The notes under the pieces were generated by a model. That model was not told where the DNA came from. It ran no database searches and saw only the letters and a program-made list of their open reading frames with translations. From Opitutaceae bacterium (GTDB lineage Bacteria; Verrucomicrobiota; Verrucomicrobiia; Opitutales; Opitutaceae): a DNA stretch of 64,000 nucleotides. The position numbers and the translations under genes were made by a program. This document shows positions 27,332 through 55,543 of this stretch, one piece after another (the first letter of the stretch is position 1; the number at the start of each line of letters is the position of its first letter). The DNA lies in contig JBIKOK010000004.1 in NCBI GenBank assembly GCA_044358025.1, forward strand, positions 853 through 64,852. The letters are read 5' to 3'.

Positions 27332-28768
27332 ATGCGCACCACGATTTCATTCCTCGCGTTCCTGTTCGCCGCGTCCCTCTCCGCCGCCGCTCCCGCGCGT
27401 CCCAACATTATCCACGTCATGGCCGACGACCTCGGCTGGGGCGAAACCGGTTACAACGGCCACCCGCAGCTCCACACGCCCGTGCTCGACGAACTCGCGC
27501 GCACCGCGCTGCGCCTTGACCGGTTCTACGCCGCGTCGCCGGTCTGCTCGCCCACGCGCGCGAGCGTGATGACCGGCCGCCACGCGAACCGCTCCGGCGC
27601 CTTCTCGCCCAACATGTCGACCCGCCCCGAGGAAATCACCGTCGCACGCATCCTGAAGGATGCCGGCTACCGCACCGGCCACTTCGGGAAGTGGCACCTC
27701 GGCGCCGTGAAAAAGGAATCGCCCCTCAACCCCGGCCGCATGGGCTTCGACGAGTTTCTATCTCACGACAATTTTTTCGAAATGAACCCGCCGCTTTCGC
27801 GCAACGGCGCGCCCCCGCAGATCGTGCCGGGCGAGAGCTCCGTCGTCGTCGTCGATGCCGCGATCGATTTTCTCCGGCGCGGGCGGGCCGCACGGGAGCA
27901 GAAGCCGTTCTTCCTCGTCGTCTGGTTCGGCTCACCGCACGGCCCTTACTCCGGGCTGCCGGAGGACATCGCGCGCTACGCCGCGCACCCCAACCCCGAG
28001 ATGCGTGCCCGCTTCGCCGAAATTACGGCAATGGACCGCGCCATCGGATCCCTCCGCGCCGCGCTGCGCGAGCTCGGCCTCGCCGACAACACGCTCCTTT
28101 GGTTCAACTCCGACAACGGCAGCCCCATCGCGAAGGAGGCCGACTCGTTCAGCGGCGGCTGGCGCGGCCGCAAGGGCGAGGTCTACGAGGGTGGCCTGCG
28201 CGTGCCCGGCCTCGTCGAGTGGCCCGCGGTCATCAAGACCCCTCGCGCGTCGTCCGTCCCCGTCGTCACCTCGGATTTTCTGCCGACCGTGCTGGATCTC
28301 GTCGGCGTGAAACATCCCGCGCCCTCGCGCCCGCTCGACGGCATCAGCCTGCGCCGCCTGCTCGTCGACGGCACGATGACCGAGCGCCCCTCGCCGATCG
28401 GTTTTTGGCGTTACGCCTCACAGGGCGAAAACAAAAACGGCCGCTGGCTGCCCGAGGACGTCTCGCGCGGCACCACACCGACGACGAAGCAGGCGAATAT
28501 TCTCTTTCAAAACTACAAACACCCGGTCGCCAAGACCGCCGACTTCGGCGGCGATGCCGCGTGGACGGACAACCGCTACAAACTCCTCCTTGGCGAATCG
28601 CGCCGCGACAAACGCGGTCAGCGCACGGAGCTCTTCGACCTCCTCGCCGATCCCAAGGAAACCAAGGACATCGCCGCCGCGCATCCCGACATCGTGCGTC
28701 GCATGACCGACGAGCTGCAGGGCTGGCAACGCTCCGTCGAGCGCAGCCTGAGCGGCGCGGACTACTGA
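27332..28768 (+). CDS. Cys-type sulfatase (family S1)
   Basis: Leader MRTTISFLAFLFAASLSAAA. PNIIHVMADDLGWGE and CSPTRASVMTGR. C-terminal ELFDLLADPKETKDIAAAHPDIV. Confidence 0.9.
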   Translation: MRTTISFLAFLFAASLSAAAPARPNIIHVMADDLGWGETGYNGHPQLHTPVLDELARTALRLDRFYAASPVCSPTRASVMTGRHANRSGAFSPNMSTRPEEITVARILKDAGYRTGHFGKWHLGAVKKESPLNPGRMGFDEFLSHDNFFEMNPPLSRNGAPPQIVPGESSVVVVDAAIDFLRRGRAAREQKPFFLVVWFGSPHGPYSGLPEDIARYAAHPNPEMRARFAEITAMDRAIGSLRAALRELGLADNTLLWFNSDNGSPIAKEADSFSGGWRGRKGEVYEGGLRVPGLVEWPAVIKTPRASSVPVVTSDFLPTVLDLVGVKHPAPSRPLDGISLRRLLVDGTMTERPSPIGFWRYASQGENKNGRWLPEDVSRGTTPTTKQANILFQNYKHPVAKTADFGGDAAWTDNRYKLLLGESRRDKRGQRTELFDLLADPKETKDIAAAHPDIVRRMTDELQGWQRSVERSLSGADY

Positions 28769-28950
28769 GCCGCCGACTCGGAAGAGAGGGGCCCGCTCGC
28801 GGGCGATTTCGTGGCAGGGGCCCGAAATCCCGCACCATCCCCAGCGATCCCGCGCAAGCGTGCTCTTACCGCACGCATTTTCGCCGCCCTGCGCGCGGCG
28901 CTTGCCTCGCCGCACCGTCGCGCGAAGATCCGGTCCCCCCCACCCCGCCC

Positions 28951-31947
28951 ATGCCCCCTACACCTCGCGCCGGCCTCCCGATCCTGCAGCACTCCACCGC
29001 GCTGCTCGCGCTCGCTCTCCTCCTCACGACCGCGCGCGCCGCCACCATCACCGGCTCCGTCCTCCACTCCGCCCGCGGCGAATACCTCGCCAACGCCGAG
29101 GTGCGCATCGCCGGCACCGCTCTCACCACCACCACCGAGCGCGACGGTTCCTACCGCCTCGCCAACGTCCCCGCCGGCACGCACACCCTCACCGTCACCT
29201 ACACCGGACTGCGCACCGAACGCACCACCCTCACCGTCGACTCCGAGGCCACCGCACGGCGTGACTTCGAACTGACCTCACTCGTGGCCGAGACCGCCAC
29301 CGCCCCGGGCGCCAGCGTGCAGAAACTCGACGCCTTCGTCGTCCGCTCCGAACGCGAGGGCAACGCCAAGGCCCTCATGGAACAGCGCCGCTCGATGAAT
29401 CTCTCCAACAGCCTCTCGTCGGACGTTTTTGGTGACGTCGCCGAGGGCAGCGTCGGCGAATTCCTGAAAAACGTCCCCGGCGTCGACGTCGACTACGTCG
29501 GCCCCGATGCCCGCGGCCCGCGCCTCCGCGGACTCGATCCCCAATACGTCGGCGTAAGCGTCGACGGCATGACGCTCGCCAGCGCCGACGGCTCGCAAGC
29601 CCTCGGCGGCGGCGCGCGCTCCTTCAGCTTCGACCAGGTCTCCGTCAACAGCCTCGATCGCATCGAGGTCAACTACACCACCGGCGCCGACCAGGACGCC
29701 GACGCGCCCGCGGGCACGATCAATCTCAAGACGAAGCGCGCCTTCGAGCGCAAGGGCCGCCGCCTCTCGTGGCAGGTCAACGTCATGGCCAACGGCGAAC
29801 GCTTCGACTGGCGCCGCACCTACGGCCCGAGCGACGTGCGCACCCCCAAATTCCGCCCCGGCGCCATCCTCGAGTATTCCGACGTGTTTTTCCGCAACCG
29901 CCTCGGCCTCGTGTTCAACCTCAGCGAGTCCAACCAATACGTCGTCCAGAGCCGCGTCGACCACACCTACAACGCCGCGACCACCCCGACCGACCCGCGC
30001 CCGCGCGTCCTCACCAACGTCACCGCGATCACCAACCCGCGCTTCACCGAGCGCTTCACGCCTTCGCTCACGCTCGACTGGAAGGCCACCCCCTCGCTCG
30101 CCCTCTCCCTCAGTGCGATGTATAATTACTTCGATGCCTTCATCGACAGCCGCTCCGCCGCGTTCAGCGTGCCGGGTGGGCGCGCCACAGTCACCGGCGA
30201 CGGGCTGAATCACTTCACGTTCAACAACGCCCAGGTCGCGCTCTCCACCAACCACGAGCACAAATACGCGCAGACCCGCACGGTCACGCCCAAGTTCGAA
30301 TTTCGCCGCGGGGCCTGGCTGGTGGACGGCGGCCTGCACTACACCATCTCGACCAACCAATACGTCGCCCTCCCCCGCGTCGGCCCGCAGACCCTCACCA
30401 CCGCCGCGCTCACCGGCCTCACGCTCCAGCTCCGCCGCTCCGCCCTCAACGACGTCGATTGGCAAATCATGCAGACCGCCGGCCGCGACCTCAGCGACCT
30501 GGCGAACTTCACCAATCCGCGCCTCGCCGATGATGCGCGCTTCTCCGAGCAGGAGGTCTACCAGGGCCAGGCCAACGTCCGTTGGAACGCGCCGTGGCGC
30601 CTGCCCACGTGGCTCAAATTCGGCGCCAAGGCCACCGAGGACTACCACCGCTTCCGCAACCCCAACGCCGCGCTCACCTGGCGCTACGACGGCCCCGGCG
30701 GCGGCCCGACGGGAAGCTTCGCCCCCCTCGCCTTCCCCGACAACCGCTGGCGCCTCGAGAACGGCCTCAACGTCACCTCGCTCTCCGGCTCGCCGCCCGT
30801 GTTTCCGAACCGCCCCGGGATCGCGACGCTCTTCCGTGAGCAACCCGCGCTGTTCACCGACCTCGCGACACCGGCGAATTTCTACACCGCCTACATCAAC
30901 AACACGAGTTACATCAAGGAGACGCGCCTCGCCGGCTTCGGTCTCGCCAACGTCCGCCTCGGCCGCGTGCAGCTCCAAGGCGGCCTGCGTTGGGAGGAAA
31001 ACGAAATCGCGATCCGCGAATTCCAGCAGCGCAGCGCCGCCGCCGTGCGCACCGCGGGCTTCGTCGTCACGCCCGCCACCGGCCGCGCCACCACGGTCGA
31101 GGGCCTCAGCTACCAGTTCATGAGCCTGCCGAAAGTCGTGCGCACCTCCGCCTACGACAATCTCTTCCCCTCCGTCAGCGCCAAACTCCACCTGAGCGAA
31201 AACTTCCAGGCCCACCTCGGCTACAGCTCCACCCTCTCCCGGCCCGCCCTCGGCAACCTCGGCGGCGTCCTCGAGTTCAACGAGTCCACCCTCGTCGCCA
31301 ACGTCCCCAACCCCGACCTGCTGCCCGAGCGCTCCCGGAATTTCTCCGGCCGCCTCGCCTACTACTTCGAGCCCGTCGGCAACCTCGCGCTCACCCTCTT
31401 CCAAAACGACATCTCCGACAGCGTCACGTCGCAGGAGTTTCCCGCCTCGGCCTTCGGCTTCGAAGACGATCCGCTCTACTCCACCTACCGCTTCGTCTCC
31501 ACCGGCAACCGCCCCGGCAGCCTGCGCGTCCGCGGCGGCACGATCGAATACAGCCAGGCGCTCTCTTTCCTCCCCGGCCTGCTCAAGGGCCTCAACGCCT
31601 CCGCCAGCTACACGCGCACCTACGCCAGCGCACGTCGCGCCGCGATGACGCCCCACATGATCGGCGGAACGCTGAGCTACCGCCACCGCGGCCTCACCTT
31701 CGGCGTCGCCGGCAAGTGGACCGACGCCACGCCGTTCTCCACCACCGGCGTCATCAGCTACCGCAAAGCCCGCACGATGATCGACCTCAACGGCGGCTAC
31801 CAACTCACCGCGCGCACCGGCCTTTTTTTCCAGGTAAGAAACCTCTTCAACATCGCCGAATACCGCTACCAGATCGATCCCAGCTACCTGACCTCGGACA
31901 CGCGCGTCGGCACGTTCTACACGTTCGGGCTCAAGGGCGTGTTCTGA
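28951..31947 (+). CDS. TonB-dependent outer-membrane receptor (more divergent paralogue)
   Basis: Internal ATG at 28951 (MPPTPRAGLPILQHSTALLALALLLTTARA). CarbopepD_reg-like block ATITGSVLHSARGE...RDGSYRLANVPAG. Plug block GEFLKNVPGVDVDYVG. C-terminus FYTFGLKGVF. The 1418-aa track ORF from 27691 is an out-of-frame read through the sulfatase gene. Confidence 0.88.
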   Translation: MPPTPRAGLPILQHSTALLALALLLTTARAATITGSVLHSARGEYLANAEVRIAGTALTTTTERDGSYRLANVPAGTHTLTVTYTGLRTERTTLTVDSEATARRDFELTSLVAETATAPGASVQKLDAFVVRSEREGNAKALMEQRRSMNLSNSLSSDVFGDVAEGSVGEFLKNVPGVDVDYVGPDARGPRLRGLDPQYVGVSVDGMTLASADGSQALGGGARSFSFDQVSVNSLDRIEVNYTTGADQDADAPAGTINLKTKRAFERKGRRLSWQVNVMANGERFDWRRTYGPSDVRTPKFRPGAILEYSDVFFRNRLGLVFNLSESNQYVVQSRVDHTYNAATTPTDPRPRVLTNVTAITNPRFTERFTPSLTLDWKATPSLALSLSAMYNYFDAFIDSRSAAFSVPGGRATVTGDGLNHFTFNNAQVALSTNHEHKYAQTRTVTPKFEFRRGAWLVDGGLHYTISTNQYVALPRVGPQTLTTAALTGLTLQLRRSALNDVDWQIMQTAGRDLSDLANFTNPRLADDARFSEQEVYQGQANVRWNAPWRLPTWLKFGAKATEDYHRFRNPNAALTWRYDGPGGGPTGSFAPLAFPDNRWRLENGLNVTSLSGSPPVFPNRPGIATLFREQPALFTDLATPANFYTAYINNTSYIKETRLAGFGLANVRLGRVQLQGGLRWEENEIAIREFQQRSAAAVRTAGFVVTPATGRATTVEGLSYQFMSLPKVVRTSAYDNLFPSVSAKLHLSENFQAHLGYSSTLSRPALGNLGGVLEFNESTLVANVPNPDLLPERSRNFSGRLAYYFEPVGNLALTLFQNDISDSVTSQEFPASAFGFEDDPLYSTYRFVSTGNRPGSLRVRGGTIEYSQALSFLPGLLKGLNASASYTRTYASARRAAMTPHMIGGTLSYRHRGLTFGVAGKWTDATPFSTTGVISYRKARTMIDLNGGYQLTARTGLFFQVRNLFNIAEYRYQIDPSYLTSDTRVGTFYTFGLKGVF

Positions 31948-32327
31948 GCCGCGCCGCCCTATCAATCGCTGCATAATTTCGTGCGCTCAAATGGGTCTTC
32001 GCCATTCGAAGAAATTGCGCGACCGCGCGTCGTCGCCGCAACCGAAGCCAATCTTTGGCCCGGAGGACACGGAGTAAGGCCACCGAACTTTCTGCCGGTG
32101 TGCCCGCTCTGTGTCCTCCGTGCATCCTCCGTGCCCTCTGTGACAAAAAAATCATACACGAACTTTCTCAAAGATTGATCGTCCGCGTACACTTGTCGCA
32201 CCTTGAGTCCGTTTCGTTTTTGATCTTCCCCTTCGCTGCGGCCGCGTATCGGCCACAGCCTGCCAGCCGCAGTTTCTTCTTCTGTTTCCGCCGCGGGGGC
32301 GGCAGAAACCAATCACCCAACCCCACC

Positions 32328-35300
32328 ATGAGCTCGTCCCGTTTCACCGCCCTCCTTTGCTTCTTCGCGTCCCTGCTGGCCGTTGCGCCCGCCGCCGAAC
32401 CCACCGGCTTCATCACCGGTCGCGTCCAAAACACCGATACCGGCCAATACGTGAACAACGCCCGCGTGGCCGTCCGCGGCACCAACCTCGTTGTCCTCAC
32501 CGACGAGACCGGCACCTTCCGCCTCTCCTCCGTGCCCGCCGGCGAGATCGTCCTCGAAATCTTCTTCACCGGCCTCGACCCTCTCCGCACCCCGGTCACC
32601 GTCGCCGCCGGCCAGACGCTCGAGCGCGACTTCGAACTCGGCCGCGCCCCGCGCCGCGCTCCTGCCGGCGAGGTCGTGAAACTCGACTCGTTCGTCACCT
32701 CCGCCTCGCGCGAGATGGACGGCGCGGCCATCGCCATCAACGAACAACGCTTCGCCGCCAACATCGTCACCGTCGTCGCCGCCGACGAATTCGGCGTCGT
32801 GCCCGACGGCAATATCGGCGAATTCCTCAAAATGCTTCCCGGAATCACGATGGATTATCGGGGCGGCGACCCGCGGGAAATTTCGATGAACGGCGTCTCG
32901 TCGGCCAATGTGCCCGTGACCATCGGCGGCTTCGCGCTCGCATCGTCCGAGGTCTCCGGCGCGGGCCGCAACGTCGAGCTCAACGCCATCTCGATCAACA
33001 ATCTCTCCCGCATCGAGGCCGTCTACTCGCCGACGCCCGAGACGCCCGGCTCGGCCCTCGCCGGCTCGGTCAACATGATCCCGCGCTCCGCCTTCGAGCG
33101 TTCACGGCCGATCTTCAACGGCTCCGTCTACCTCGCCGCGCGCGACAGTTCCCTCGAGGGCCGCACCGAGGGCCCCGCGCGCGAGCCCACCTGGAAGGTC
33201 CGCCCCGGCTTCGAGTTTTCCTGGATCGTGCCGGTAAACAAACGCTTCGGCTTCACCGTTTCCGCCGGCGCCTCCACCCAATACGTCGAGGGCCCGCTCC
33301 TGCAGAATACCTGGCGCGGCGCCGGCACCGCGACCAACGGCACGACCTTCCCCGACACCACGCCGGACCGCCCCTACCGCAGCGATTTTCTCGTCCGCAT
33401 CGAATCCAAGATCGCCGACCGCACCTCCTTCGCCACCACCGTGGACTACAAACTCAGCCCGACCGATCGGTTCTCGTTTTCGCTCCAATCCGGCACGTTC
33501 CACACCGACTTCAACCAGCGCTCGATCACGTTCTCGGTCGGTGGCACGGGCGCGGGAAATTTTTCCCCGGCGTTCACCCGCGGCACGACCGGCGCCGGCG
33601 AGGTGCGGCTCTCCAACGGCGGCAACCACCGCTACTCACGCACCTTCATGCCCACGCTTTCCTGGCGGCACGACGGCCCGCTCTGGAAAATGGAAACCGG
33701 CCTCGGCTCCTCCCACGCGCAAAACGAGTTTCGCAGCGTGGACAAGGGCCGCTTCGCCAGCACCCTCGCGCGCCGCACGGGCGTCACGGTTTCCTTCGCC
33801 GACAATTTCTACCTGCGCCCCAATACCATCACGGTGACCGACGGCGCGACCGGCGCAGCCGTCGATCCGTTCAACATTGCCACCTACGCGCTCAGCACCG
33901 CCGGCGCCAGCCCGCAACGCTCGCGCAACGTCCAGAACACCGCCTACGCCAATATCCGCCGCGATTTCAATCCGGGCTTTCCGCTCACGCTCAAGGGCGG
34001 TCTCGATGCCCGCTCGTCCCGCAGTGACAACCGCACGCAAAACCTCGCCGTCAACTTCGTCGGTCCCGACGGTCGCGCCTCGACCACGCCCCTCGGCAGT
34101 GACGACAGCGCCGCGGCCGTCTACGACAATTTCTACTACCAGCGCGCCGGCTTGTTTGGCGTGCCGCGCGTCCAGTGGGTCAGCAACGAGACCGTGCTCG
34201 ACGTCTATCGCGCCAACCCGGCGTGGTTCACGTCCGACGAAAACGCGCGCTACCGCGCCGAGGTCAATGCCTCCCGCCTCTCCAAAGAGATCATCTCGTC
34301 CGCCTATCTCCGTGCCGACGCGCAATTCCTCGACCGCCGCCTGAAGCTCACCGGCGGCGTGCGCGCCGAGCAGACCAACATCACCGCCAGCGGATCACTC
34401 AGCGATCCAACGCGCAACTTTCAGCGCGACGCCGCCGGCCGCGTCGTCACGGTCGCCGCCCCCACGCCCGCCAATCCCAACGCGCGCACGCCCGCCCTCA
34501 TTTTTCCCGCCACCCCGGCCAACGCCCTCGCCCTCTCGCAGCTCACGCTCCTCGACCGCGCGACGAAGGTGGAGAAGGAATACCTCCGCTGGTTCCCCAG
34601 CCTCAACGCCGGCTACAATCTCCGCGAAAACCTGATCGTCCGCGCCGCCACCTACACCTCCGTCGGCCGGCCCGCCTTCACCCAATACTCCGGCGGCGTC
34701 ACCTTGCCGAACCTCGAAGCGCCCGCGGATGCCTTGACCAACCGCATCACCGTCAACAACGCCGGCATCAAGCCGTGGACAGCCAAATCCACGAAGGTCT
34801 CGCTCGAATATTATTTTGAGCGCGTGGGCCAGATCTCCGTCGGTGCGTTCCGCCGCGACATCCGGAATTTCTTCGGCCAGACGACCTTTGACGCCACGCC
34901 GGAATTCCTCGCGCTCTACGGGCTCGACCCCGTGCTCTACGATCCCTTCACCGTCGCCACCCAGGAAAACCTTCAGACCTCCGTGCGCATGACCGGCATC
35001 GATGTGAACTACCGCCAGGCGCTGACCTTTCTCCCCCGCTGGGCGCGCGGCGTGCAGATCTTCGCCAACGGCAGCGCCCAACGCGTGATCGGCGATGCCG
35101 CCACCAATTTCAACGGCTACATCCCGCGCACCGGCAGCTGGGGCATCAGCCTCTCGCGCGAGCGCTACAACGTCCGCCTCAACTGGAACTACCTCGGCCG
35201 CCAGCGTCGCGGTATCGTCACCGGTCGCGGCATCGAGCCGGGCACCTACACGTGGGGCAGCAAACGCAGCTACATCGACCTCACCGGCGAGTATTCCCTC

Positions 35301-35456
35301 ACGCGCCGCCTCTCGCTCTTCGCGAATCTCCGCAACATCAACGACCCGACCGACGACGTGGAAATCCACGGCCCCACGACCCCCGCCGAAGCCCATTTCC
35401 GCCAGCGCGCCGAGTTCGGCTCCCTCTGGACCCTCGGCCTCAAAGGCACCTTCTGA
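32328..35456 (+). CDS. TonB-dependent outer-membrane receptor (paralogue of 14506 and 17709)
   Basis: Internal ATG at 32328 (MSSSRFTALLCFFASLLAVAPAAEP). Blocks GFITGRVQNTDTG...TDETGTFRLSSVPAG and AIAINEQRFAANI. C-terminus FGSLWTLGLKGTF. Confidence 0.9.
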   Translation: MSSSRFTALLCFFASLLAVAPAAEPTGFITGRVQNTDTGQYVNNARVAVRGTNLVVLTDETGTFRLSSVPAGEIVLEIFFTGLDPLRTPVTVAAGQTLERDFELGRAPRRAPAGEVVKLDSFVTSASREMDGAAIAINEQRFAANIVTVVAADEFGVVPDGNIGEFLKMLPGITMDYRGGDPREISMNGVSSANVPVTIGGFALASSEVSGAGRNVELNAISINNLSRIEAVYSPTPETPGSALAGSVNMIPRSAFERSRPIFNGSVYLAARDSSLEGRTEGPAREPTWKVRPGFEFSWIVPVNKRFGFTVSAGASTQYVEGPLLQNTWRGAGTATNGTTFPDTTPDRPYRSDFLVRIESKIADRTSFATTVDYKLSPTDRFSFSLQSGTFHTDFNQRSITFSVGGTGAGNFSPAFTRGTTGAGEVRLSNGGNHRYSRTFMPTLSWRHDGPLWKMETGLGSSHAQNEFRSVDKGRFASTLARRTGVTVSFADNFYLRPNTITVTDGATGAAVDPFNIATYALSTAGASPQRSRNVQNTAYANIRRDFNPGFPLTLKGGLDARSSRSDNRTQNLAVNFVGPDGRASTTPLGSDDSAAAVYDNFYYQRAGLFGVPRVQWVSNETVLDVYRANPAWFTSDENARYRAEVNASRLSKEIISSAYLRADAQFLDRRLKLTGGVRAEQTNITASGSLSDPTRNFQRDAAGRVVTVAAPTPANPNARTPALIFPATPANALALSQLTLLDRATKVEKEYLRWFPSLNAGYNLRENLIVRAATYTSVGRPAFTQYSGGVTLPNLEAPADALTNRITVNNAGIKPWTAKSTKVSLEYYFERVGQISVGAFRRDIRNFFGQTTFDATPEFLALYGLDPVLYDPFTVATQENLQTSVRMTGIDVNYRQALTFLPRWARGVQIFANGSAQRVIGDAATNFNGYIPRTGSWGISLSRERYNVRLNWNYLGRQRRGIVTGRGIEPGTYTWGSKRSYIDLTGEYSLTRRLSLFANLRNINDPTDDVEIHGPTTPAEAHFRQRAEFGSLWTLGLKGTF

Positions 35457-35457
35457 T

Positions 35458-35587
35458 TCCAATTCGCGATCAAGTTGAGACTAATCGGCCGGAAGGCAGG
35501 AGCCTGCATGCAGGCGGTTCAGCTCGCAGCCATCGCCTGCAAGCGGGCTCCTGCAAATCGCGTGAATCTCCTCTCGAAAGCGAGCGG
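35458..35587. repeat. ~130-bp hairpin-forming REP/MITE-like element, copy 2 (inverted relative to copy 1)
   Basis: It starts 2 nt after the TBDR stop. An internal inverted repeat pairs 35499..35518 with 35532..35551. It matches the reverse complement of 9769..9898. Confidence 0.85.
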
Positions 35588-35639
35588 GAATGAGCCGCAC
35601 CGCGGTAGTGGTGGAGTGGATTTTTTCCCGGCGAGATGG

Positions 35640-35700
35640 GCGGAGCGCGCCGGGGCGATCCAGCTGGATTGCCGGGGCGTCCGCGCCAGCGCAGGAACAC
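35640..35700. repeat. palindromic-core repeat element, degenerate copy 3
   Basis: It contains gcgatccagctggattgcc (35655..35672), the same 12-bp palindrome atccagctggat as copy 2. The flanks are only weakly similar. Confidence 0.4.
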
Positions 35701-36990
35701 TTTGGGGGGGGCATTGCGGGCATGCCTCGGGCGGCACTTGAAACTCAATCGGGCATGGAACGGATAACCGCAGACACAGATAGGCAGGGAGGACGCCGGT
35801 GAAAGGACGATCGGCGATCCACTCCCTCCGAACTCCGGGGCTCTGGCCTGGGTCGTGCAGCGCCTCCTTCCGCGGCCTTTGCTGCCTGCCTCAGCGTGGC
35901 CCCGAGCGCGCCGCGTGGATCCTCGGCGCAGCCGGCTGGGTCGAGTGAAAGATGCGCCACCCGACACTCGCGGTTTGGCCTTGAGCCAAAACTTGCATTA
36001 ACCCCAAACCTCCAAGCCTGACGCCGTTCGTGCCTGGAGTGCGGGCGCAGCTCAGGTGCGCGCCGGTCCGCACTGACGCCGAGGGCGTGGCCGCCGCCGC
36101 CGCGTGGTGGCGCGGACGGTGACGGTGCGGGGGGCGGGCAGGCTTTCGGCCGAGCGGCCCAAAGCGGGTGACCGTCCCTGTGGGCTCGCCTCCCTTTTCT
36201 CCAGGGCCGCCTGCCTCAAGCACGGAGTCGATGGAAATTTCCTATACGTGGGCAGCCGGGAACTGACTTCGTGGCCCATGGGGCCTGGTTCTCATCTCCG
36301 ATGGCGGGTTCGCCCCCTCGAAAATCGCCCAACGTCGCAAGGCAGAGCGAGTCGGTCGTCTCCCGGACTTGCCAGAGGGCGCGGGTATCACGCGCTCGCC
36401 GGGCCTGGGCCGCCGCCCCCCGACGCATCGGCTCCGCCGGCATTGGCCGGGCTGCAGCGTGCCGGCCCAGCGTGCGTCCAGGATATCGCAGAATCCACGA
36501 TACCCGGATCAAGGTTCACCCGATTGTAAGGTCGGGAATCGGACGATATATTTTGTCTCAAATGAGGCCGAGCAGCGTGAGTTACGTGATGAAAAAAAAC
36601 CCTGCTCCTTTCCACGGGAACCGTAATCGCGCCGCCGTCCCGCCGGTTTTCCCGGGCCCCGAGACGGGCGAAGGGCCGGCCCAATCCGCCTGGCTCCGCC
36701 AAGGTCTCCGGCCGGGCCTCCGGCGGCGGGTGCCGCGCAGGGTCGCGTATCCCGTCCACTCGCGGGCGGGCGGTGAGTGCGGCGATGACGCCGTTGCCAC
36801 CAAGGGCGTCGGGGGCGTGGGCCGGGGCCAACGGGTGCGCGCAGCGGCCGAGCACCGCGGTGTGGCGCCACCTTTTCCGCGTTGCTCCATTTTCGCCGCC
36901 CGCTGCGCCCGCGGGCCCGGTGTTCGTTGTCCGTCGGTCCTTAGCCCGTCGGCCTCCTCGGGGTCGTTTCAATTTGTGTGACCTCCCGCA

Positions 36991-37515
36991 TTGATCACTC
37001 ATTTCCCCAGATCTCGTCGCACCGCCAGCTTCACGATGGTCGAAGTGTTGCTGGCGTCGTTTATCTTGCTGGTGGGATTCATCGGTCTGATGGAGGCGGT
37101 CACGGTGTCCGCCAACACGATGGATCATGCCCGACGGCAGACCCTCGCCACCCAGATCCTCAGCCACGAGATCAAGAAGCTGTATCTCGCCCCGTGGACG
37201 AACGGCAGCACCGGCATCAACGATCTGACCACGGCCAAGATCAGCCTTCCGGTCGACAGTCAGTTCGATCAGGCCAGGCTCGCCGTGGGCGACGACCTGA
37301 GCAGCACGGCCCTCGTGCGTTTTTCACTCGCGCGCACCGTGACGAGCCCCGATCCGATCCCCGGTTTGCTCCGCGAGGTCAATTTTACCGTGACCTGGAT
37401 CGTGGGGACGAGTCGTCGCAAAACCGATGGCACGCTGCTTTCGTTCACGTTTACCCGCACGAATTCGGCGTGGTACGGCAAAAACGGCCTGCACCTCAGC
37501 CACCGGTCCTCGTGA
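36991..37515 (+). CDS. prepilin-type N-terminal methylation-domain protein (GspI/PilV-like minor pseudopilin)
   Basis: TTG start. The class-III signal is RSRRTAS|FTMVEVLLASFILLVGFIGLMEAV, with Glu at +5 and a hydrophobic helix. Small (174 aa) beta-rich remainder. Confidence 0.75.
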   Translation: MITHFPRSRRTASFTMVEVLLASFILLVGFIGLMEAVTVSANTMDHARRQTLATQILSHEIKKLYLAPWTNGSTGINDLTTAKISLPVDSQFDQARLAVGDDLSSTALVRFSLARTVTSPDPIPGLLREVNFTVTWIVGTSRRKTDGTLLSFTFTRTNSAWYGKNGLHLSHRSS

Positions 37516-38123
37516 GCAGTCCATTCCCCAGCCGGCGCGCCGGCTGGACGCTCAGCGAGTTGATGATCGGCGTCTGCCTATCGATGATCGTCATGAATGC
37601 CGTGCTCGCCAGTTATGTCTTTGTGGCGCGCGCCTACACCCGGACGGTCGCGTTCGGGTCGACGAACCAGCCGACCCTGGAAGCCCAGGGCAGGCGGACC
37701 TTGGCCTCTTTTGCCCAAGACGTACAAATGACGTCGGCACTCGGCAGTCCCACCGCTTCGTCGGTCACGCTCACAGTGCCCAGCAGCATGGGAGGCACGA
37801 AGCATGTCACCTATTATTTCAACAGCACGGCGTCACCGGTGACGGTCAGCGGCTACGCCGTCCCGGCCATGTCGCTCGCGCGGATCGATGTCACCACCGG
37901 CACGGGCCTCACGTTGCATAGCTCCCTGCTCACGTGTGTCTTTAGCTACTACGATTCGTCCAACAATCCGTACACAAGCTATGTCAACCATCTGCCGGGG
38001 ATCAAACAGATGTCCGTGGCTTTCACCTCGCAGTCCGGCACCGCCACCAACGGTACGCTGACCCGCATCTACCAAGTCGCGTCGCCAAGGTTGGCACTTC
38101 GCAACAAGGCCTTCCTCCCGTGA
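37512..38123 (+). CDS. prepilin-type N-terminal methylation-domain protein (GspJ/PilW-like minor pseudopilin)
   Basis: The GTG at 37512 overlaps the upstream stop (GTGA). Signal PSRRAG|WTLSELMIGVCLSMIVMNAVLA with Glu at +5. Confidence 0.75.
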   Translation: MSSPFPSRRAGWTLSELMIGVCLSMIVMNAVLASYVFVARAYTRTVAFGSTNQPTLEAQGRRTLASFAQDVQMTSALGSPTASSVTLTVPSSMGGTKHVTYYFNSTASPVTVSGYAVPAMSLARIDVTTGTGLTLHSSLLTCVFSYYDSSNNPYTSYVNHLPGIKQMSVAFTSQSGTATNGTLTRIYQVASPRLALRNKAFLP

Positions 38124-39949
38124 TGCGTCCTCAGAAAAAAGCCGGCTCGGTCACCCTCGTCGCACTGTCCTGCGTGACGGTCCTGGCCATCGCGGGGGCG
38201 AGTTTTCTCTCGGTCACCAACCTCGCCATGAAGCTGGGCCATCGCTCCTACGCAAAGGACGTGAGCTACCAACTGGCCGAGATGGGCCTCGAGCAGGCGC
38301 TGCGCGCGTACAACGACAACGCGACAGCGGCCGCGGTCGCCAATGCGTTCAGCAGTTGGACGCTCTCCGGCATCACCGCCACCAAATCCCTCTCCATCGC
38401 CAGCAGCCGCTACGGCACCAGCGGCATCACCACCGCGGTCAATATCCGCGTCGATCATTACTTGGGCACAAGAAAGGCGACGCCGTGGAACGTGCTGACC
38501 ACTTATGCCGTGAACGATTTCGTGTGGCATCAGGGCGTCTGGTATCTGTGCAAGGCCGCGCCCCCGAGCAAAGAGTCCCCGGCCAACACCGCTTATTGGA
38601 CCAGCGCTCCGGAATCTTGGAATTCCGCCGCCAACTACCGCATCGGCAACATTGTCCTGTTCGGGGGCACCACCTACACCTGCAAGGTCGCCCACGTGAG
38701 CCAGGCTCCGCCCAACAGCACGTACTGGAACGTTCCTGCCGCCGTCCTGCCGAAGAGTGCGCTCACCGCCTACGTCGTGGATAACGTGATCTTTTCCGGC
38801 GGGATGCCCTACCGCTGCATTTCGGCGCACTCCAATCAGCTTCCGCCCAATCCCACTTACTGGCTCAGCGCCCCGGTGATTTACGCGGAGGGCGTCGCCG
38901 TGCTGCCCGACCGCCATGCGACCACCCTCAAGACCCAGTTGCGCGCGACCCTGGCGCCGGCCACGCTCTTTCCCAACGCCGCCGGCGCCACCACCTATAC
39001 GAACCTGGCTTCCGGCGGCGTGGTGGACAGCTATAATTCGGTCACGGGCGCGTATAACGTCGGCGGCAATATCGGTTCATCCGCCGTCTTGGCCGGTGAG
39101 AATCGGTCGGGCCTCGCCGTCTCCATCTTGACGGCAAGGGTCAATGGCTACGTGGCCGCCCCTTCGACTTCCTCGTCACCCTTTTCCCCCAATTGGAACT
39201 ATGCTACCGCCACGGCCATCGTCACGTCGACGCCGGCGCCCACGATTCCCGCCACCCGGGTCGATCTGACTCGCGTCAGCCGGAGTCCGCATGTCCCGCA
39301 GTTCGACATCAGGCCCGTGACCGCGCCCAACTCGTTGTCGAACCCGGCCGGCACCGTGACGCTTCCGCGCGCGGGCGACATCGTTTCCGCCGACGGAAAG
39401 TATTATTACGCGACCTCTGCCACGCTCGATATCAACTCCGGGGACATCCTGAACATCGATGGTCCCGTGGTCATCGACGTCCAGCCCAGCACGGCCCAAT
39501 GGTGGATTCAGGGCTCGGGTAAAATCGTGATTGGCGCACCCACGGTTCCGATCAAACCCACCGCTTCGCTCGAAATCCACGTATCCAGCTTGCTCGATAT
39601 TGGCAGCGATACGACCGGCGGGATTCAGAATCTGACCCTGGACCCCACTCGTTGCGTCATTCTCAGCACGAACACCATCAATGTTTCGGGCAAAAATTGG
39701 TTCTGGCCGATTATTCCGTTCTACGGCGTGGTCTACATGCCCAACGCCTTTCTGCACGTCTGGAACACCGGCTACAACCTGCCGATTTACGGCGCCCTGT
39801 CGGCCAAGAATATCTACTTCGAAAGCGTCGCCGCGCTGCATTACGACACCGCCCTCCGTACCGCGGTGATCAGCGGGGTCGACACCCCGTATCGGCTCAC
39901 CGAGTGGCGCGAACTGACCGACCCGAGCGATCGGGTCACGCTGCCCTAG
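38120..39949 (+). CDS. GspK/PilX-like large pseudopilin with three tandem chitin-binding-domain-like (CBM5/12-type) repeats
   Basis: The start overlaps the upstream stop (GTGATG). The N-terminus KKAGSVTLVALSCVTVLAIAGASFL is pilin-like but lacks Glu+5, as in GspK/PilX. Residues 123-248 (38486..38863) form three repeats of the pattern W..(x)Y.(V/I).(N/D).V...G..Y.C..AH.S...P.N..YW. Confidence 0.7.
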   Translation: MMRPQKKAGSVTLVALSCVTVLAIAGASFLSVTNLAMKLGHRSYAKDVSYQLAEMGLEQALRAYNDNATAAAVANAFSSWTLSGITATKSLSIASSRYGTSGITTAVNIRVDHYLGTRKATPWNVLTTYAVNDFVWHQGVWYLCKAAPPSKESPANTAYWTSAPESWNSAANYRIGNIVLFGGTTYTCKVAHVSQAPPNSTYWNVPAAVLPKSALTAYVVDNVIFSGGMPYRCISAHSNQLPPNPTYWLSAPVIYAEGVAVLPDRHATTLKTQLRATLAPATLFPNAAGATTYTNLASGGVVDSYNSVTGAYNVGGNIGSSAVLAGENRSGLAVSILTARVNGYVAAPSTSSSPFSPNWNYATATAIVTSTPAPTIPATRVDLTRVSRSPHVPQFDIRPVTAPNSLSNPAGTVTLPRAGDIVSADGKYYYATSATLDINSGDILNIDGPVVIDVQPSTAQWWIQGSGKIVIGAPTVPIKPTASLEIHVSSLLDIGSDTTGGIQNLTLDPTRCVILSTNTINVSGKNWFWPIIPFYGVVYMPNAFLHVWNTGYNLPIYGALSAKNIYFESVAALHYDTALRTAVISGVDTPYRLTEWRELTDPSDRVTLP

Positions 39950-47015: not shown

Positions 47016-47849
47016 TCATCGCAGCCGCCGGTGGAGCGCCTCCAGGGCCTGCTGCAATGCGTCGACCTGCTTGCGGAGATCGGCCACATCGTCGGCCGCG
47101 GACGGCAGTCCGGTGCCGGCGAGCCGGGTTCGACGCGCTTCGTCCTCCATCTCCTGGCGGGCTTCTTCCATGCCGGTCACGATCACGCCGATCAGGAGGT
47201 TTAACGTGATCATCGTGCCGAGGAGAATAAACGAAATGAAGTAACCAATCGTCAGAATCGTGCCCGGGCCGGCGGCGAGCTGCGTGCGCATGATGTCGGC
47301 CCAGCCCTCCAGGGTGACGACTTGGAACAGCGCCAGCGCCGAGGCGCCCAACGAACCGAAGTGGGCGGGATCGGCTTTGCCGAAGAGCGAAACCCCGACG
47401 ACCGCGTAGACGTAAAAGAGCACGACCAGCAGCACGCCGACATAGGCCATGGAGGGAATACTCTTCAGCAGCGCCGTCACGAGAATCTGGAGGCGAGGCA
47501 GCGCCGTGATGAGCCGGAGAACCCGGAGCACGCGGGCGAGGCGCAGCACGGCGGAATATTCGGCCCCGAGCGGCAGCAGGCAGAAGGCGACGATCGCGAA
47601 GTCGAAGAGGTTCCAGGGGTCGCGGAAAAACCGCCACGGCCGGGCGCCGTGCGCACCGCAACGCACCAGCAACTCCACGACGAAGAGCGCCAGCACAAGA
47701 CGGTCGGCCGCCCCGAGCCACGGACCGATCTGCGCCATGAGCGCGGCGTTGGTTTCGAGGCCGACCAACACCCCGGCGACGAGAATCAAGCCCAGCACAA
47801 ACCGCTGGAAGACGACCGAGTCGATCAGGCGTTGGCAAAATGAAGACAT
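47016..47849 (-). CDS. BacNaV-family voltage-gated cation channel (6TM, single domain) with TLEGWAD selectivity filter
   Basis: 277 aa. S4 has Arg at every third position (VLRLARVLRVLRLITALPRLQ). The pore FQVVTLEGWADIM (filter codons 47295..47315) is closely similar to the NaChBac FQVVTLESWAS. C-terminal coiled coil DDVADLRKQVDALQQALEALHRRLR. Confidence 0.88.
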   Translation of the reverse strand: MSSFCQRLIDSVVFQRFVLGLILVAGVLVGLETNAALMAQIGPWLGAADRLVLALFVVELLVRCGAHGARPWRFFRDPWNLFDFAIVAFCLLPLGAEYSAVLRLARVLRVLRLITALPRLQILVTALLKSIPSMAYVGVLLVVLFYVYAVVGVSLFGKADPAHFGSLGASALALFQVVTLEGWADIMRTQLAAGPGTILTIGYFISFILLGTMITLNLLIGVIVTGMEEARQEMEDEARRTRLAGTGLPSAADDVADLRKQVDALQQALEALHRRLR

Positions 47850-47884
47850 GGTTGGAATCCTGTCGGATAAGGGGGTGCCGGGAC

Positions 47885-48835
47885 TTACGCGCCCCGGATC
47901 AGGGCGGGAAGCTGGCCGAGGTTGAGGCTGTTGGCCCGCGACTGGATTTCGGGCATGAGCCGGGCACCTTGCGTTTTCGCGCTGCCCAACAGCTCTTGAA
48001 AGGTCGCCTTGAGTTGGAGCGCCCCGAGCGTGCGGCCTCCGGCGTAGTAGCGTTGGGCCAGCTGACCGAGGGCGTAGGTCGTGGCGAAGGTCAGAGCCGG
48101 CCCAGTCGCCGCCGAAGCCAGCGAGCCGACGAACCCGCCGCCCGCCCGTCCCACCAGCCCGCCCAGAAACTTCCGCGCGATCCCCTCGAAGGCCTGCGAC
48201 GCCAAGCCAAGACCGAGCACACCGAGGAATTCTTTCACGTGGCCGATATCGAGGCTATGGCCGTAGTGGCGGCCGATGCGGTAAACGAGGTGAGTTTGCA
48301 CGGGCAAAACGGCGAGCGTCGCCGCCGACTGGGGCAAGAGCTCAAGGGCGCCGGCCAGGATCGCGGTCGTGCGAATCGAGGCCTCCAGGGCGGGATCGGG
48401 TGCACGCCCAGCGGTCGCGGCGGGTGCGGGCGGCGACGCCGGAGCGGACAAGGCCGCGGGAACCGCCGCAGCGCGGGCGACGGCATCCGTCAAACGCAGC
48501 GACATTTCGGTCTGCGCGACGGGCAAACGCAGCTGCTCGGCGAGGGCGTTGAGAAACCGGATCTCGGCGTCGTTGCGATGACCGTCGGCCTCGATCGCAC
48601 AGACCGCCATCTCGTAGGCGAGCGAGCGCGCCTCGGGGCTCGTCAGGCCGGCCACCGCATCCGCGAGCGAACTCTGTTTGAGCAAAACCCGCTGAACCAA
48701 CAGCGGAGCGTCGGGGATGGCGAGGTTCTCCAGCAGCGTGCGGATCTGGGCACGCTCGGCTTCGGATTTGTGGCCATCGCAAAAGGCGGCCGAAAGGGCG
48801 ATCAGGGCGATGCTCTCTTTTTCACGGTGGTTCAT
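47885..48835 (-). CDS. TerB-like N-terminal domain protein with DUF697-like C-terminal membrane-associated domain
   Basis: ATG at 48835 (MNHREKESIALIALSAAFCDGHKSEAERAQI...). A second TerB-type helix pair is SLAYEMAVCAIEADGHRNDAEIRFLNALAEQL. An Ala/Pro linker follows, then LPVQTHLVYRIGRHYGHSLD...GLGLASQAF. The DUF697 assignment is tentative. Confidence 0.65.
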   Translation of the reverse strand: MNHREKESIALIALSAAFCDGHKSEAERAQIRTLLENLAIPDAPLLVQRVLLKQSSLADAVAGLTSPEARSLAYEMAVCAIEADGHRNDAEIRFLNALAEQLRLPVAQTEMSLRLTDAVARAAAVPAALSAPASPPAPAATAGRAPDPALEASIRTTAILAGALELLPQSAATLAVLPVQTHLVYRIGRHYGHSLDIGHVKEFLGVLGLGLASQAFEGIARKFLGGLVGRAGGGFVGSLASAATGPALTFATTYALGQLAQRYYAGGRTLGALQLKATFQELLGSAKTQGARLMPEIQSRANSLNLGQLPALIRGA

Positions 48836-48971
48836 GCCAAAAACGAAGCCCGCTGAAACGACTGCGCGCAATCGCCCGCCGGAATTTTGGAATCAAAGGA
48901 ATCCATTCTAGACCCGAGCCGAAAGATTCGCCCCGCCGTTGACGCCCCGGCGAAGCGGCGTCTGTTGTCCG

Positions 48972-49514
48972 ATGAATAGATCCCTTCAGGTCGTCGCCTG
49001 CGCGCTCGGTTGTCTCTGCTGGAGCGGCTGCGCCACGAAGCAACCGCCGCTGAAGACCGTCGAACGCGTCGATCTCCCCCGCTACATGGGCCCCTGGTAT
49101 GTGATCGCGGCGATTCCCACGTTCATCGAGACCCAGGCGTACAACGGCGTGGAGACCTACCGGCTCGATCCGGACGGGACCATCGACACGGTGTTCACGT
49201 TCAACGAAGGCGGGTTCGACGGGCCGGCCAAGCGCCACAACCCGCGCGGTTTCGTGCAAGACACGGTGAACAACTCCACGTGGGGCATGCAGTTCATCTG
49301 GCCCTTCAAGGCGGAGTTCCTGATTACGCACCTCAACGCGGACTACACCCAGACCGTGATCGGGCGAAACAAACGCGACTATGTGTGGATCATGGCCCGC
49401 ACCCCGGAAATCCCCGCAGCCGACTACCGGCGCTTGCTGGGTGAGTTGGAAGCACAGGGTTACGACCTCACCAAAATCCGCAAGGTGCCCCAGCGCTGGC
49501 CCGCGAAGAACTAG
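48972..49514 (+). CDS. blc: bacterial lipocalin (Blc-like outer-membrane lipoprotein)
   Basis: ATG at 48972 gives the lipobox CLCWSGC. VDLPRYMGPWYVIAAIPTFIE is the lipocalin SCR1 (G-x-W) block. YTQTVIGRNKRDYVWIMARTP is the typical Blc C-terminal block. Confidence 0.85.
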   Translation: MNRSLQVVACALGCLCWSGCATKQPPLKTVERVDLPRYMGPWYVIAAIPTFIETQAYNGVETYRLDPDGTIDTVFTFNEGGFDGPAKRHNPRGFVQDTVNNSTWGMQFIWPFKAEFLITHLNADYTQTVIGRNKRDYVWIMARTPEIPAADYRRLLGELEAQGYDLTKIRKVPQRWPAKN

Positions 49515-49706
49515 GCCCGCGGCGAAACGGCGGCGCGCCGCGGCGCGCAAATTCGGTCGCGCCCGCCACTCCAGGTCACACCCGCGCGTGACCCTTCGCC
49601 GGTCTCGGACAGCCGGGCCGACGATGGCGGTGGATTTCTTCTTCTCCGCTCTTTCCTCCGCCGGCGACTTCCGCCCTGATGGCGGCAGGCCGCACCGCCT
49701 GCCCCT

Positions 49707-51065
49707 ATGCCCCCCCGCCGCTCTCTCCTCCCCCTCGCGTTTTCCCTCCTTCTCTCCCTCACAGCCGCGGCAACCGCTGCTGCGGCCTCGGCCGCCCCCG
49801 CGCCGAAACCCAACATCGTCTACATCCTCGCCGACGACCTGGGTTACGCCGACGCCGGCTTCAACGGCGGCACCGATATCAAGACCCCGCACCTCGACCA
49901 GCTCGCCCGCGACGGTGCGAATCTGAAATCGTTCTACGCGCAACCCGTCTGCTCGCCGACACGCGCCGCGCTCCTCACCGGGCGCTACCCGTCGCACACC
50001 GGCGTCTACGGCGTCGTCCGCCCCCACGCCCCGTGGGGTCTCCCACTCGCAGAGCGCACGCTGCCCCACGCCCTCCGCGACGTCGGCTACGAAACCGCCC
50101 TCGTCGGCAAATGGCACCTCGGCGAATCCGACGCCGCCTACCGCCCCACCCGCCGCGGCTTCGATCACCAATACGGCCTCTGGTTCGGCAACGTCGATTA
50201 CTTCACCCATCTGCGCGACGGCGTCCTCGACTGGCATCACAACGACGAACCTTCCCATGACGAGGGCTACACCACCCACCTGATCGCCCACGAAGCGACC
50301 CGCCGGATCCGCGAGAAAAAACCCGGCCAACCCCTCTTCCTCTACGTCGCGTTCAACGCCGTGCACGATCCCCTCCAGGTCCCCGACCGCTATCTCGTGC
50401 CCTACGCCCACCTCGAGGGCGCCCGCCGCACCTACGCCGGCATGCTCGCCGCCATGGACGAGGGCATCGGCCAAATCCTCGCGGCCCTCGACCAAGCCGG
50501 ACTGCGCGAAAACACCCTCGTGATTTTCTCCGGCGACAACGGCGGCCCCCAACCCGGCAAAATCACCTCCAACGGCCCCCTCCGCGCCGGCAAGGGCACG
50601 CTCTACGAGGGTGGCGTCCGCGTCTGCGCCAGCGCCCGCTGGCCCGGTCGCATCCCCGCCGGCAGCGTCATCGACGAACCGCTCCACATCGTCGATTGGT
50701 TTCCCACGCTGTTGAAGCTCGCCGCCGCCCCCGCCGCCCAGCCGCTCCCCGTCGACGGCCGCGACGTCTGGCCCCTGCTCACCCAGGGCGCCAAATCGCC
50801 CCACGCCGCCCTCCTGCTCTGCGGCACCCAGCCCGGCGTCGCCGCCATCCGCGCCGGCGATTGGAAACTGCACGTCGGCGCCGGCGGGAAAAAAGGCTCC
50901 GGCCAAGTCGAACTCTACGACCTCGCCCGTGACCTCAGCGAAAAAAACAACCTGGCCGCCACCCACCCCGAGAAAGTCCGCGAGCTCCGCGCCCACTTCG
51001 ACCGCTTCCAAAAGACCGCCGTCCCCTCCGGCGAAAAACCCGTGGCTGCGGCCAAGAAAAAATAG
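49707..51065 (+). CDS. Cys-type sulfatase (family S1)
   Basis: Leader MPPRRSLLPLAFSLLLSLTAAATAAAASA. PNIVYILADDLGYAD and CSPTRAALLTGR. C-terminal ELYDLARDLSEKNNLAATHPEKV. Confidence 0.9.
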   Translation: MPPRRSLLPLAFSLLLSLTAAATAAAASAAPAPKPNIVYILADDLGYADAGFNGGTDIKTPHLDQLARDGANLKSFYAQPVCSPTRAALLTGRYPSHTGVYGVVRPHAPWGLPLAERTLPHALRDVGYETALVGKWHLGESDAAYRPTRRGFDHQYGLWFGNVDYFTHLRDGVLDWHHNDEPSHDEGYTTHLIAHEATRRIREKKPGQPLFLYVAFNAVHDPLQVPDRYLVPYAHLEGARRTYAGMLAAMDEGIGQILAALDQAGLRENTLVIFSGDNGGPQPGKITSNGPLRAGKGTLYEGGVRVCASARWPGRIPAGSVIDEPLHIVDWFPTLLKLAAAPAAQPLPVDGRDVWPLLTQGAKSPHAALLLCGTQPGVAAIRAGDWKLHVGAGGKKGSGQVELYDLARDLSEKNNLAATHPEKVRELRAHFDRFQKTAVPSGEKPVAAAKKK

Positions 51066-55541: not shown

Positions 55542-55543
55542 AG

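Follow-up and report, generated by a model that had tools for sequence, protein, structure and literature searches.

A predicted modular minor pilin with an internal CBM5/12 array in Opitutae

Gene 3 and its CBM5/12 repeats

The window analysed here is a stretch of 64,000 nucleotides (GenBank assembly GCA_044358025.1, contig JBIKOK010000004.1, positions 853 to 64,852 of the forward strand) from a freshwater Opitutae (Verrucomicrobia) bacterium with a genome of ~66% GC. It holds a cassette of three genes, the third of which, gene 3, encodes a predicted minor pilin whose pilin head is interrupted by three tandem carbohydrate-binding modules of family 5/12 (CBM5/12). According to Pfam and an AlphaFold2 (AF2) model, the order along the chain is pilin head, three CBM5/12 repeats and a β-solenoid containing the Pfam domain DUF7305. 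The elements of gene 3 are given below, with lengths in amino acids (aa); the repeats are delimited by a hidden Markov model (HMM) built from homologues.

38120..39949, + strand: gene 3, predicted modular K-slot minor pilin, 609 aa from GTG, 608 aa from ATG 38123
38144..38314, + strand: N-terminal hydrophobic segment and long α1 helix, residues 9–65 (DSSP on the AF2 model)
38360..38485, + strand: first pilin-head β-strands, residues 81–122 (strands 81–83, 86–93, 104–112 and 119–122 in the AF2 model)
38480..38611, + strand: CBM5/12 repeat 1, residues 121–164 (repeat HMM; Pfam 17.9 bits alone, sub-threshold)
38612..38737, + strand: CBM5/12 repeat 2, residues 165–206, the best-scoring copy (Pfam 31.7 bits alone)
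38747..38875, + strand: CBM5/12 repeat 3, residues 210–252 (repeat HMM; no Pfam match alone; z = 17.5 with repeat 2)
38876..39913, + strand: remaining pilin-head strands and predicted ComZ-like β-solenoid, residues 253–598 (Pfam, Foldseek)
39374–39862, + strand: Pfam DUF7305 match, residues 419–581

The ATG at 38123 is the start called for gene 3 in 95%-identical relatives. There are 209 homologues of gene 3 with the same architecture; 64 full-length sequences formed the set for the HMM checks, and repeat statistics were taken over 879 unique repeat copies. The Pfam gathering scores are 26.2 bits for CBM_5_12 (PF02839), 27 for DUF7305 (PF23981), 21.2 for N_methyl and 22 for PilO. The AF2 model of gene 3, based on the 64-sequence alignment, has a predicted local distance difference test score (pLDDT) of 88.9 and a predicted template modelling score (pTM) of 0.85, with the repeats at ~90.

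An earlier, sequence-only reading of this DNA had described three tandem repeats resembling chitin-binding domains (ChBDs). Indeed, positions 38486–38863 (+ strand) translate exactly to the peptides quoted there, residues 123–248 of the protein. Smith-Waterman scores between the copies were 74 for repeats 1 and 2 (z 11.7), 69 for repeats 1 and 3 (z 11.7) and 93 for repeats 2 and 3 (z 17.5), against shuffle means of 20–22, and none of 2000 shuffles equalled the observed repeat-pair score. The repeat HMM located three copies at the same place (residues 121–164, 165–206 and 210–252).

The fold of the repeats and their membership in the CBM5/12 family can be regarded as established. The whole gene 3 protein scores 39.3 bits with CBM_5_12, well above the cut-off, and all 64 full-length homologues match this model (best E 6.5e-18). 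With Pfam by itself, only repeat 2 clears the cut-off in isolation; repeats 1 and 3 are counted as CBM5/12 because of their homology to repeat 2 and the score of the whole protein. In repeat 3 of the window protein, the leading Trp, which is near-invariant in homologues, is replaced by Lys (K212). A phmmer search of PDB sequences with gene 3 recovered the tandem CBM12 of Vibrio chitin oligosaccharide deacetylases (E 3.5e-5), and a profile of the repeat unit matched the same deacetylases (E 4e-9) and the ChBD of B. circulans ChiA1 (E 2e-6). In the AF2 model the repeats adopt the small antiparallel β-fold (~40–60 aa) of ChBDs. Foldseek superimposed them on the ChBD of S. griseus ChiC (2d49) with a root-mean-square deviation (rmsd) of 1.1 Å over 39 columns (TMt 0.67), on the ChiA1 ChBD (1ed7) with 1.7 Å over 40 columns and on S. 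marcescens ChiB (1ogb) with 1.8 Å, and matched them to the tandem CBM12 pair of a Vibrio deacetylase with a probability of 1.0. The core pattern W-x5-Y ... G-x2-Y ... W is present throughout the 879 copies (W2 99%, Y8 98%, G18 82%, Y21 95% and W38 100%). The outcome that the sequence-only reading had named as contrary to its assignment, no CBM match together with an unrelated fold, is thus the opposite of what was observed.

In public annotation, the family members P0048 and P0060 are named 'carbohydrate-binding protein'. Three members of 950–1000 aa (P0087, P0102 and P0117) have Fn1_2 (PF23003) beside the CBM array, and two of them also Cu_bind_like (PF02298). Arrays of CBM5/12 or ChiC_BD-like domains occur as well in phage tail-fibre-like proteins and in the F2-pyocin fibre (PDB 9rkv, 8fqc, 25vf), and BFVD entries such as A0A6J7WKU6 match the CBM part of the gene 3 model with E values down to 5e-8.

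Scaffold and gene cassette

On the basis of the models, the scaffold that carries the repeats belongs to the ComZ/solenoid-type PilX structural class. The AF2 models contain the long N-terminal helix of a pilin (57 residues, 9–65, in gene 3) followed by antiparallel strands, at 81–122 and from 253 onward; the strands at 81–122 end at the hairpin that receives the CBM insertion, and the last strand (591–598), which follows the solenoid, is strongly conserved. With Foldseek, the whole gene 3 model matched ComZ (6qvi_A) with an E value of 7e-4. To strip the CBMs from the fold comparison, the CBM-free family member P0190 was also modelled (29-sequence alignment, pLDDT 88.6). This paralogue has an N-terminal helix at 11–72, and ComZ (6qvi_B) was its only PDB match at E ≤ 1e-3 (E 1.3e-4, prob 0.99), followed by the ice-binding proteins LeIBP and FfIBP (4nuh, 8x1o). 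A search of PDB sequences with phmmer or with the family profile detected no sequence homology to ComZ. The DUF7305 match of gene 3 is marginal (27.1–28.7 bits against 27); in the homologue set, 64 of 64 sequences match (best 1.5e-16), and the bare paralogue of Opitutus sp. GAS368 reaches 56 bits. From the fold matches to ComZ and the ice-binding proteins, DUF7305 proteins would be K-slot pilins of the ComZ/solenoid-PilX type. A literature search returned no mention of DUF7305.

The N-terminus of gene 3 resembles a prepilin signal in part. A putative cleavage site (slash) lies in KKAG/SVTLVAL, with no Glu at +5. In KKAG/SVTLVALSCVTVLAIAG, the basic leader, the Gly and the hydrophobic stretch fit a class III signal, without Glu5 and without an N_methyl match. 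The N-terminus RGS-x-x-L-V-A-L-C, likewise without Glu at +5, is common to the whole DUF7305 family. Tip subunits of the GspK type as a rule lack Glu5.

Directly upstream of gene 3 lie two further genes of the cassette.

36991..37515, + strand: gene 1, small GspI/PilV-like minor prepilin, 174 aa from TTG 36991, motif RRTAS/FTMVEV
37512..38123, + strand: gene 2, prepilin-type, J/PilW slot, ~203 aa, motif RRAG/WTLSELMIG with Glu at +5

Gene 1 has a predicted class III signal with Glu at +5. Its HMM scores are all below the cut-offs (Pfam N_methyl 15.7 bits; NCBIfam gspI 21.6 and PilV 20.7 bits); among its orthologues, 23 of 24 match gspI and 22 of 24 PilV, these being the top-ranked models, below their equivalog cut-offs. 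Of the orthologues of gene 2, 35 of 36 match N_methyl (best 2.5e-7; 26.9 bits against 21.2 in GAS368), and only the window copy fails. The orthologues of genes 1 and 2 also give weak HpsB and HpsC matches, and profiles of both genes returned only non-significant matches to N-terminal helices in the PDB. The stop codon of gene 1 overlaps the start of gene 2 (GTGA), as does that of gene 2 the ATG of gene 3 (TGATG), and these overlaps suggest translational coupling of genes 1–3.

Three details of the prepilin genes may be mentioned. The residue at −1 of the predicted gene 1 cleavage site is Ser in this lineage (L003:2389, L008, L009, L013, L015). Gene calls for gene 1 in related contigs begin at an ATG that lies within the motif (37036 here) and so lose the leader. 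The +1 residue of gene 2 is Trp in the window and Cys in the 95% relative.

A scan of one genome per species gave 54 cassette loci, all of them in Opitutae/Opitutaceae (Lacunisphaera, Opitutus sp. GAS368, Oleiharenicola and Cephaloticoccus). Wherever the flank is long enough, genes 1 and 2 are the direct upstream neighbors of gene 3, which takes the K slot as the third gene after a GspI/PilV-like prepilin and a second prepilin. Three more genes follow in 32 of the 38 loci with ≥3 kb downstream, encoding a ~540-aa L-like protein, a PilO-like protein and a ~185-aa N-like protein. In GAS368 the PilO-like protein scores 26.9 bits with Pfam PilO (cut-off 22) and matches GspM weakly. The ~540-aa protein (L001:11860–13491 in the GAS368 locus, L001, and orthologues), which is absent from the window, has a mean column identity of 63% over 25 sequences and, even with this 25-member alignment, no relative in Pfam, NCBIfam or the PDB; it is a candidate for a new assembly component like GspL or PilM-N, a role assigned by position only. 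Prepilins and assembly genes are thus encoded together with gene 3, as judged from motifs, N_methyl and PilO matches and synteny over the 54 loci. The window differs downstream, as do its nearest relatives (L008 at 91% identity; L003–5 and L033 at 95–97%): here a PSCyt/PSD gene follows the cassette. L008, the sole relative with enough upstream flank, also has a TonB-dependent receptor gene upstream.

In two loci, toxin-antitoxin genes (HicA, PhdYeFM and a faint PIN_3) lie between the K-slot and L-like genes (L006:11855–12971 and L007:13758–15170). The Verru_Chthon cassette families gave weak matches to the N-terminal motif only and do not represent the same cassette. Rfam, promoter, terminator and composition scans around the cassette gave nothing informative; a weak sigma-70-like site lies at 36524–36552 and a terminator-like hairpin at 36950–36966, just before gene 1. 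The ~1.5 kb upstream of the cassette (35457–36990) contains overlapping open reading frames (ORFs) without Pfam matches and no convincing gene.

The number of CBM repeats in this family varies widely. BLASTP against the CBM-free paralogue of GAS368 aligned window residues 3–117 with paralogue residues 4–115 and window residues 252–598 with 120–464; where the paralogue has a hairpin of four residues in its pilin head, the window protein thus has the 134-residue CBM array. The 120 closest relatives carry 3–12 copies. The wider scaffold family comprises 312 representative clusters at E ≤ 1e-3; of 93 full-size representatives examined for repeats, 32 have none and 61 have 1–11. In 16 loci, gene 1 itself has 1–2 CBM5/12 repeats, which frequently share an ORF with the prepilin motif, so that two subunits of one predicted tip complex would have acquired the same module. 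GAS368 possesses a second, paralogous six-gene cassette (L001:16149–21695), 4.4 kb downstream of the first and separated from it by one HD-domain gene; its DUF7305 protein, of 465 aa, has no CBM repeats.

Predicted function at the filament tip

The explanation we favor, with moderate confidence, is that gene 3 encodes a minor pilin of modular build, located at the tip of a type IV filament and displaying a multivalent, glycan-binding CBM array. ComZ of Thermus thermophilus (6QVI) resembles gene 3 in combining a pilin-type helix, a small sheet and a large β-solenoid similar to ice-binding proteins, and in being encoded by the last gene of a minor-pilin cluster. Its solenoid is closest to FfIBP and its pilin domain to GspK, and it has been argued that the filament tip is the only place for ComZ (PMC6561018). 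By analogy with ComZ and GspK, the gene 3 subunit, with its bulky solenoid, would also be accommodated only at the tip, a location to which solenoid-type PilX points as well. The products of genes 1–3 would nucleate the filament as a priming complex of the I-J-K type and stay at its tip, where gene 3 would cap the filament with its solenoid. The CBM array, sometimes together with the CBMs of gene 1, would then stand out from the tip and form a carbohydrate-binding surface, multivalent and exposed on the filament. Through such a surface the filament could adhere to a glycan that is insoluble or extended, be it a chitin- or cellulose-like material or exopolysaccharide made by the cell itself. 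The proposal of the sequence-only reading, a pilus tip that grapples polysaccharide, is plausible.

Several observations weigh against this explanation. The GspK, PilX and N_methyl HMMs of Pfam and NCBIfam found no match in gene 3 (E ≤ 10) or in the 64 homologues, the limit in homologues for the PilX models being E ≤ 0.1. Sequence searches of the PDB with gene 3 and with the family profile recovered no pilin and returned either CBM matches or non-significant matches to the N-terminal helix. Since neither a pilin HMM nor a pilin sequence in the PDB matches, the pilin identity of gene 3 rests on predicted fold, motif and synteny, and the match of its model to ComZ is globally weak (TM 0.16, prob 0.63). 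At the predicted gene 1 cleavage site, position −1 is Ser where Gly would be canonical. The window lacks genes for L/M/N-like partners, and no ATPase, secretin or major pilin was found in it or in the loci read. The aromatic residues used for binding in ChiA1-type or CBM5-type domains have no aromatic counterpart in the repeats, where the aligned positions are Ala, Pro or otherwise non-aromatic. Among the ORFs scanned, no chitinase or other chitin-degrading gene was seen.

The sequence-only reading had called gene 3 a GspK/PilX-like pseudopilin. Position and role agree with this description (K slot, ComZ-like fold) and family membership does not; it is ruled out by the missing HMM matches in the protein and its 64 homologues, and the inserted domains are all-β. 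GspK of the GspI-J-K tip complex is likewise encoded by the third gene after an I-like and a J-slot pseudopilin, lacks Glu5, carries a bulky extra domain within the pilin sheet and is predicted to cap the filament. In contrast to the CBMs and solenoid of gene 3, which are β-rich, its extra domain is α-helical. Gene 3 is a K-slot analogue of GspK, not a member of its family. One homologue, P0119, bears the JGI name 'Tfp pilus assembly protein PilX'.

The ligand-binding residues of the repeats deserve closer attention. The repeats share the Pfam family and the W...Y...G.Y.C..H core with the ChiA1 ChBD (1ED7) and the Vibrio deacetylase CBM12 (3WX7, 4NY2, 8YH4), superimpose on such domains with an rmsd of 1.1–1.9 Å and are arranged in tandem as in the deacetylases, but sit on a pilin instead of an enzyme. 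Profile alignments with solved ChBDs extend no further than repeat position ~32. After the His, the loop reads HTSLAGWEPSNVPALW in ChiA1, H-x-AQQDWAPSS..LW in the deacetylases and H-T-N-Q-x-P-P-N-T-T-Y-W in the window family, where it is ~4 residues shorter, with a conserved PPNxTYW, and has no aromatic at the 'W-x-P' position. The exposed Trp of the ChBDs, which belongs to 'DWAP' in the deacetylases, is thus missing; in ChiA1 it is W687, which is pivotal for chitin binding; a literature search on mutagenesis of ChiA1 returned no paper with W687. CBM5-type domains use a WW pair after Y-x-A-x (W59/W60 in S. griseus ChiC), which is likewise missing here. Over the 879 copies, the loop of the window family has N29 in 55%, Q30 in 45%, P32 in 91%, N34 in 66%, Y37 in 74% and W38 in 100%, and a family-specific Trp occupies repeat position 20 in 60%. 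The window protein keeps this Trp only in repeat 1 (W141), and W141 is invariant in orthologues. The repeats are likely to have a conserved surface, and Y37 and W20, as other conserved aromatics, might substitute for the canonical binding residues.

The loss of the canonical exposed Trp positions would also agree with repeats that keep the CBM5/12 fold as a non-binding stalk or spacer, or as a part of the tip 'plug', setting the size or reach of the tip complex. The copy number, which is free between 0 and 12 as in length-variable stalks, points in the same direction, as do the arrays in phage tail fibers and the pyocin fiber, which may be structural. Because CBM-free paralogues exist in the same genome, the array appears dispensable for the scaffold. 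However, the loop that corresponds to the ChiA1-type binding site keeps N, Q, P, P, N, T and Y across the copies, beyond the needs of a spacer, and the Trp at position 20 recurs in most of them. The same module was recruited independently to gene 1 in the 16 loci mentioned above, which suggests selection for a function of its own. A purely structural array therefore seems unlikely to us.

The similarity to ComZ raises the prospect that gene 3 is its functional analogue, a receptor for DNA located at the competence pilus tip, with the CBMs in a secondary role such as tethering the pilus to chitinous or other glycan surfaces on which DNA is taken up. Colonization of chitin and DNA-uptake pili are linked in Vibrio, and the scaffold has no significant structural relative other than ComZ. 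ComZ binds DNA and has been modelled at the tip with PilA2 (PMC6561018). It has no CBM modules, however, and the additions in gene 3 are of carbohydrate-binding type; no sequence similarity between the two proteins is detectable, their global TM-score is low (0.16–0.21), and the DNA-binding lysines of ComZ could not be mapped onto gene 3. Solenoid-type PilX is found in cyanobacterial motility pili as well (10.64898/2026.02.12.705559), so that the solenoid fold does not imply competence. Neither comEA, comEC nor dprA was seen in the window or the loci read, where no systematic search for them was made. We consider a DNA receptor improbable.

A periplasmic pseudopilus like that of a type II secretion system (T2SS), whose CBMs act inside the envelope and not as an external adhesin, for example by contacting GlcNAc-containing peptidoglycan or by handling secreted glycan-active enzymes, would account for the gene order (I-like, J-slot, K-slot, long protein, PilO/GspM-like, small protein), which mirrors gspI-J-K-L-M-N, for the weak GspM and gspI matches and for the proximity of the ComZ pilin domain to GspK (PMC6561018). 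It is nevertheless improbable, as every T2SS-specific match falls below its curated cut-off, the L-like protein lacks relatives among GspL proteins, in Pfam and in the PDB, up to 12 CBMs and a solenoid would be very bulky for a periplasmic piston, and solenoid PilX and ComZ belong to pili.

A tip-located glycan-binding pilin can be elaborated further, although only tentatively. Opitutae would assemble a retractable filament with a ComZ-like plug, and often a GspI-like subunit too, bearing 1–12 non-canonical CBM5/12 modules for a glycan other than crystalline chitin (a sulfated or fucose-rich algal polysaccharide, or the cell's own exopolysaccharide). Retraction would pull cells to particles, or polymer to the TonB-dependent uptake machinery that adjoins the cassette in this lineage. 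We regard this complete scenario as doubtful.

The glycan-foraging gene content of the window had been cited in the sequence-only reading as fitting a polysaccharide-binding tip. Such genes are indeed present, with 2432–4240, 14212–20858, 20531–22444 and 27332–35456 as the regions concerned. They encode a GH29 α-L-fucosidase, two sulfatases and four + strand TonB-dependent receptors with CarboxypepD_reg N-termini, and a fifth Plug-domain ORF lies on the − strand at 58285–61038. Esterases, a protein with GHL15, another with Laminin_G_3 and a fusion of 3-keto-disaccharide hydrolase and BD-FAE are found as well, and the neighborhood looks like a utilization region of the sulfated-fucan type. A link to the cassette does not follow, as the synteny is confined to the closest relatives and the neighbors in 32 of 38 loci are the L-like and PilO-like genes; a functional connection to the adjacent fucosidase, sulfatase and TonB-dependent receptor genes is thus unsupported. 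Since the cassette occurs elsewhere without this neighborhood, and since no chitinase was seen among the scanned ORFs, the neighborhood adds little to the functional assignment.

Elsewhere in the window, 5474–9766 encodes a 1430-aa multidomain protein (ThuA, GDSL lipase, DUF7133, HEAT and cytochrome c). Several long ORFs without a Pfam match at 47840–63161 are probably antisense ORFs of the GC-rich genome; the + strand ORF at 49707–51065 is a candidate counterpart of a 452-aa sulfatase in L003.

Relation to known pilins and significance

A design similar to that of gene 3 has been described in cyanobacteria. All cyanobacterial PilX homologues combine a pilin with a solenoid, a role as tip plug has been proposed for them, and one subfamily has been proposed to recognize exopolysaccharide (preprint 10.64898/2026.02.12.705559). 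As in gene 3, the pilin fold of solenoid PilX, including PilX-EPS/HpsA, is interrupted by a triangular β-solenoid, and the protein would replace PilY1 as the plug of the tip (10.64898/2026.02.12.705559). These proteins, which were compared with gene 3 by description only, come from another phylum, and their extra domains are undefined DUFs and not CBM5/12.

Modular pilins with lectin modules at the tip are already known as a design principle (PMC8179133, PMC9934059). In Streptococcus sanguinis, PilC contains a ConA-like lectin module and PilB a vWA module (PMC9934059, PMC8179133), and the lectin-bearing PilC was shown to bind glycans (PMC9934059). Like gene 3, both are minor pilins with a recognizable binding module and models place them in a tip complex alongside further minor pilins. 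Their modules are attached C-terminally through a short linker, whereas the array of gene 3 sits in a hairpin of the pilin head, in a protein that also has a solenoid; the module family differs, the copy number is variable, and the host is a diderm environmental bacterium. IPR003610 is an entry that we take to be CBM5/12. The architecture IPR012902–IPR003610 is listed once, uncharacterized, in Dataset S1 of PMC8179133.

Literature searches for minor pilins with chitin-binding or CBM modules, and for such modules in Opitutaceae, returned nothing on the architecture reported here. What is new is that a ComZ-type K-slot pilin is combined with an internal CBM5/12 array whose length varies (0 to 12), that a second predicted tip-complex subunit is decorated with the same module, and that the family is restricted to Opitutae, in a host that is an environmental glycan degrader. 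The models also offer a structural identity for Pfam DUF7305, as a predicted ComZ-like solenoid pilin.

Modular pilins are an accepted route to new binding functions, and the characterized cases come from a few pathogens, with the modules fused C-terminally. If binding by the repeats of gene 3 is true, the protein would provide a molecular handle on the attachment of Verrucomicrobia to particulate polysaccharide, and the range of copy numbers in the family would constitute a natural series for studies of avidity at the pilus tip.

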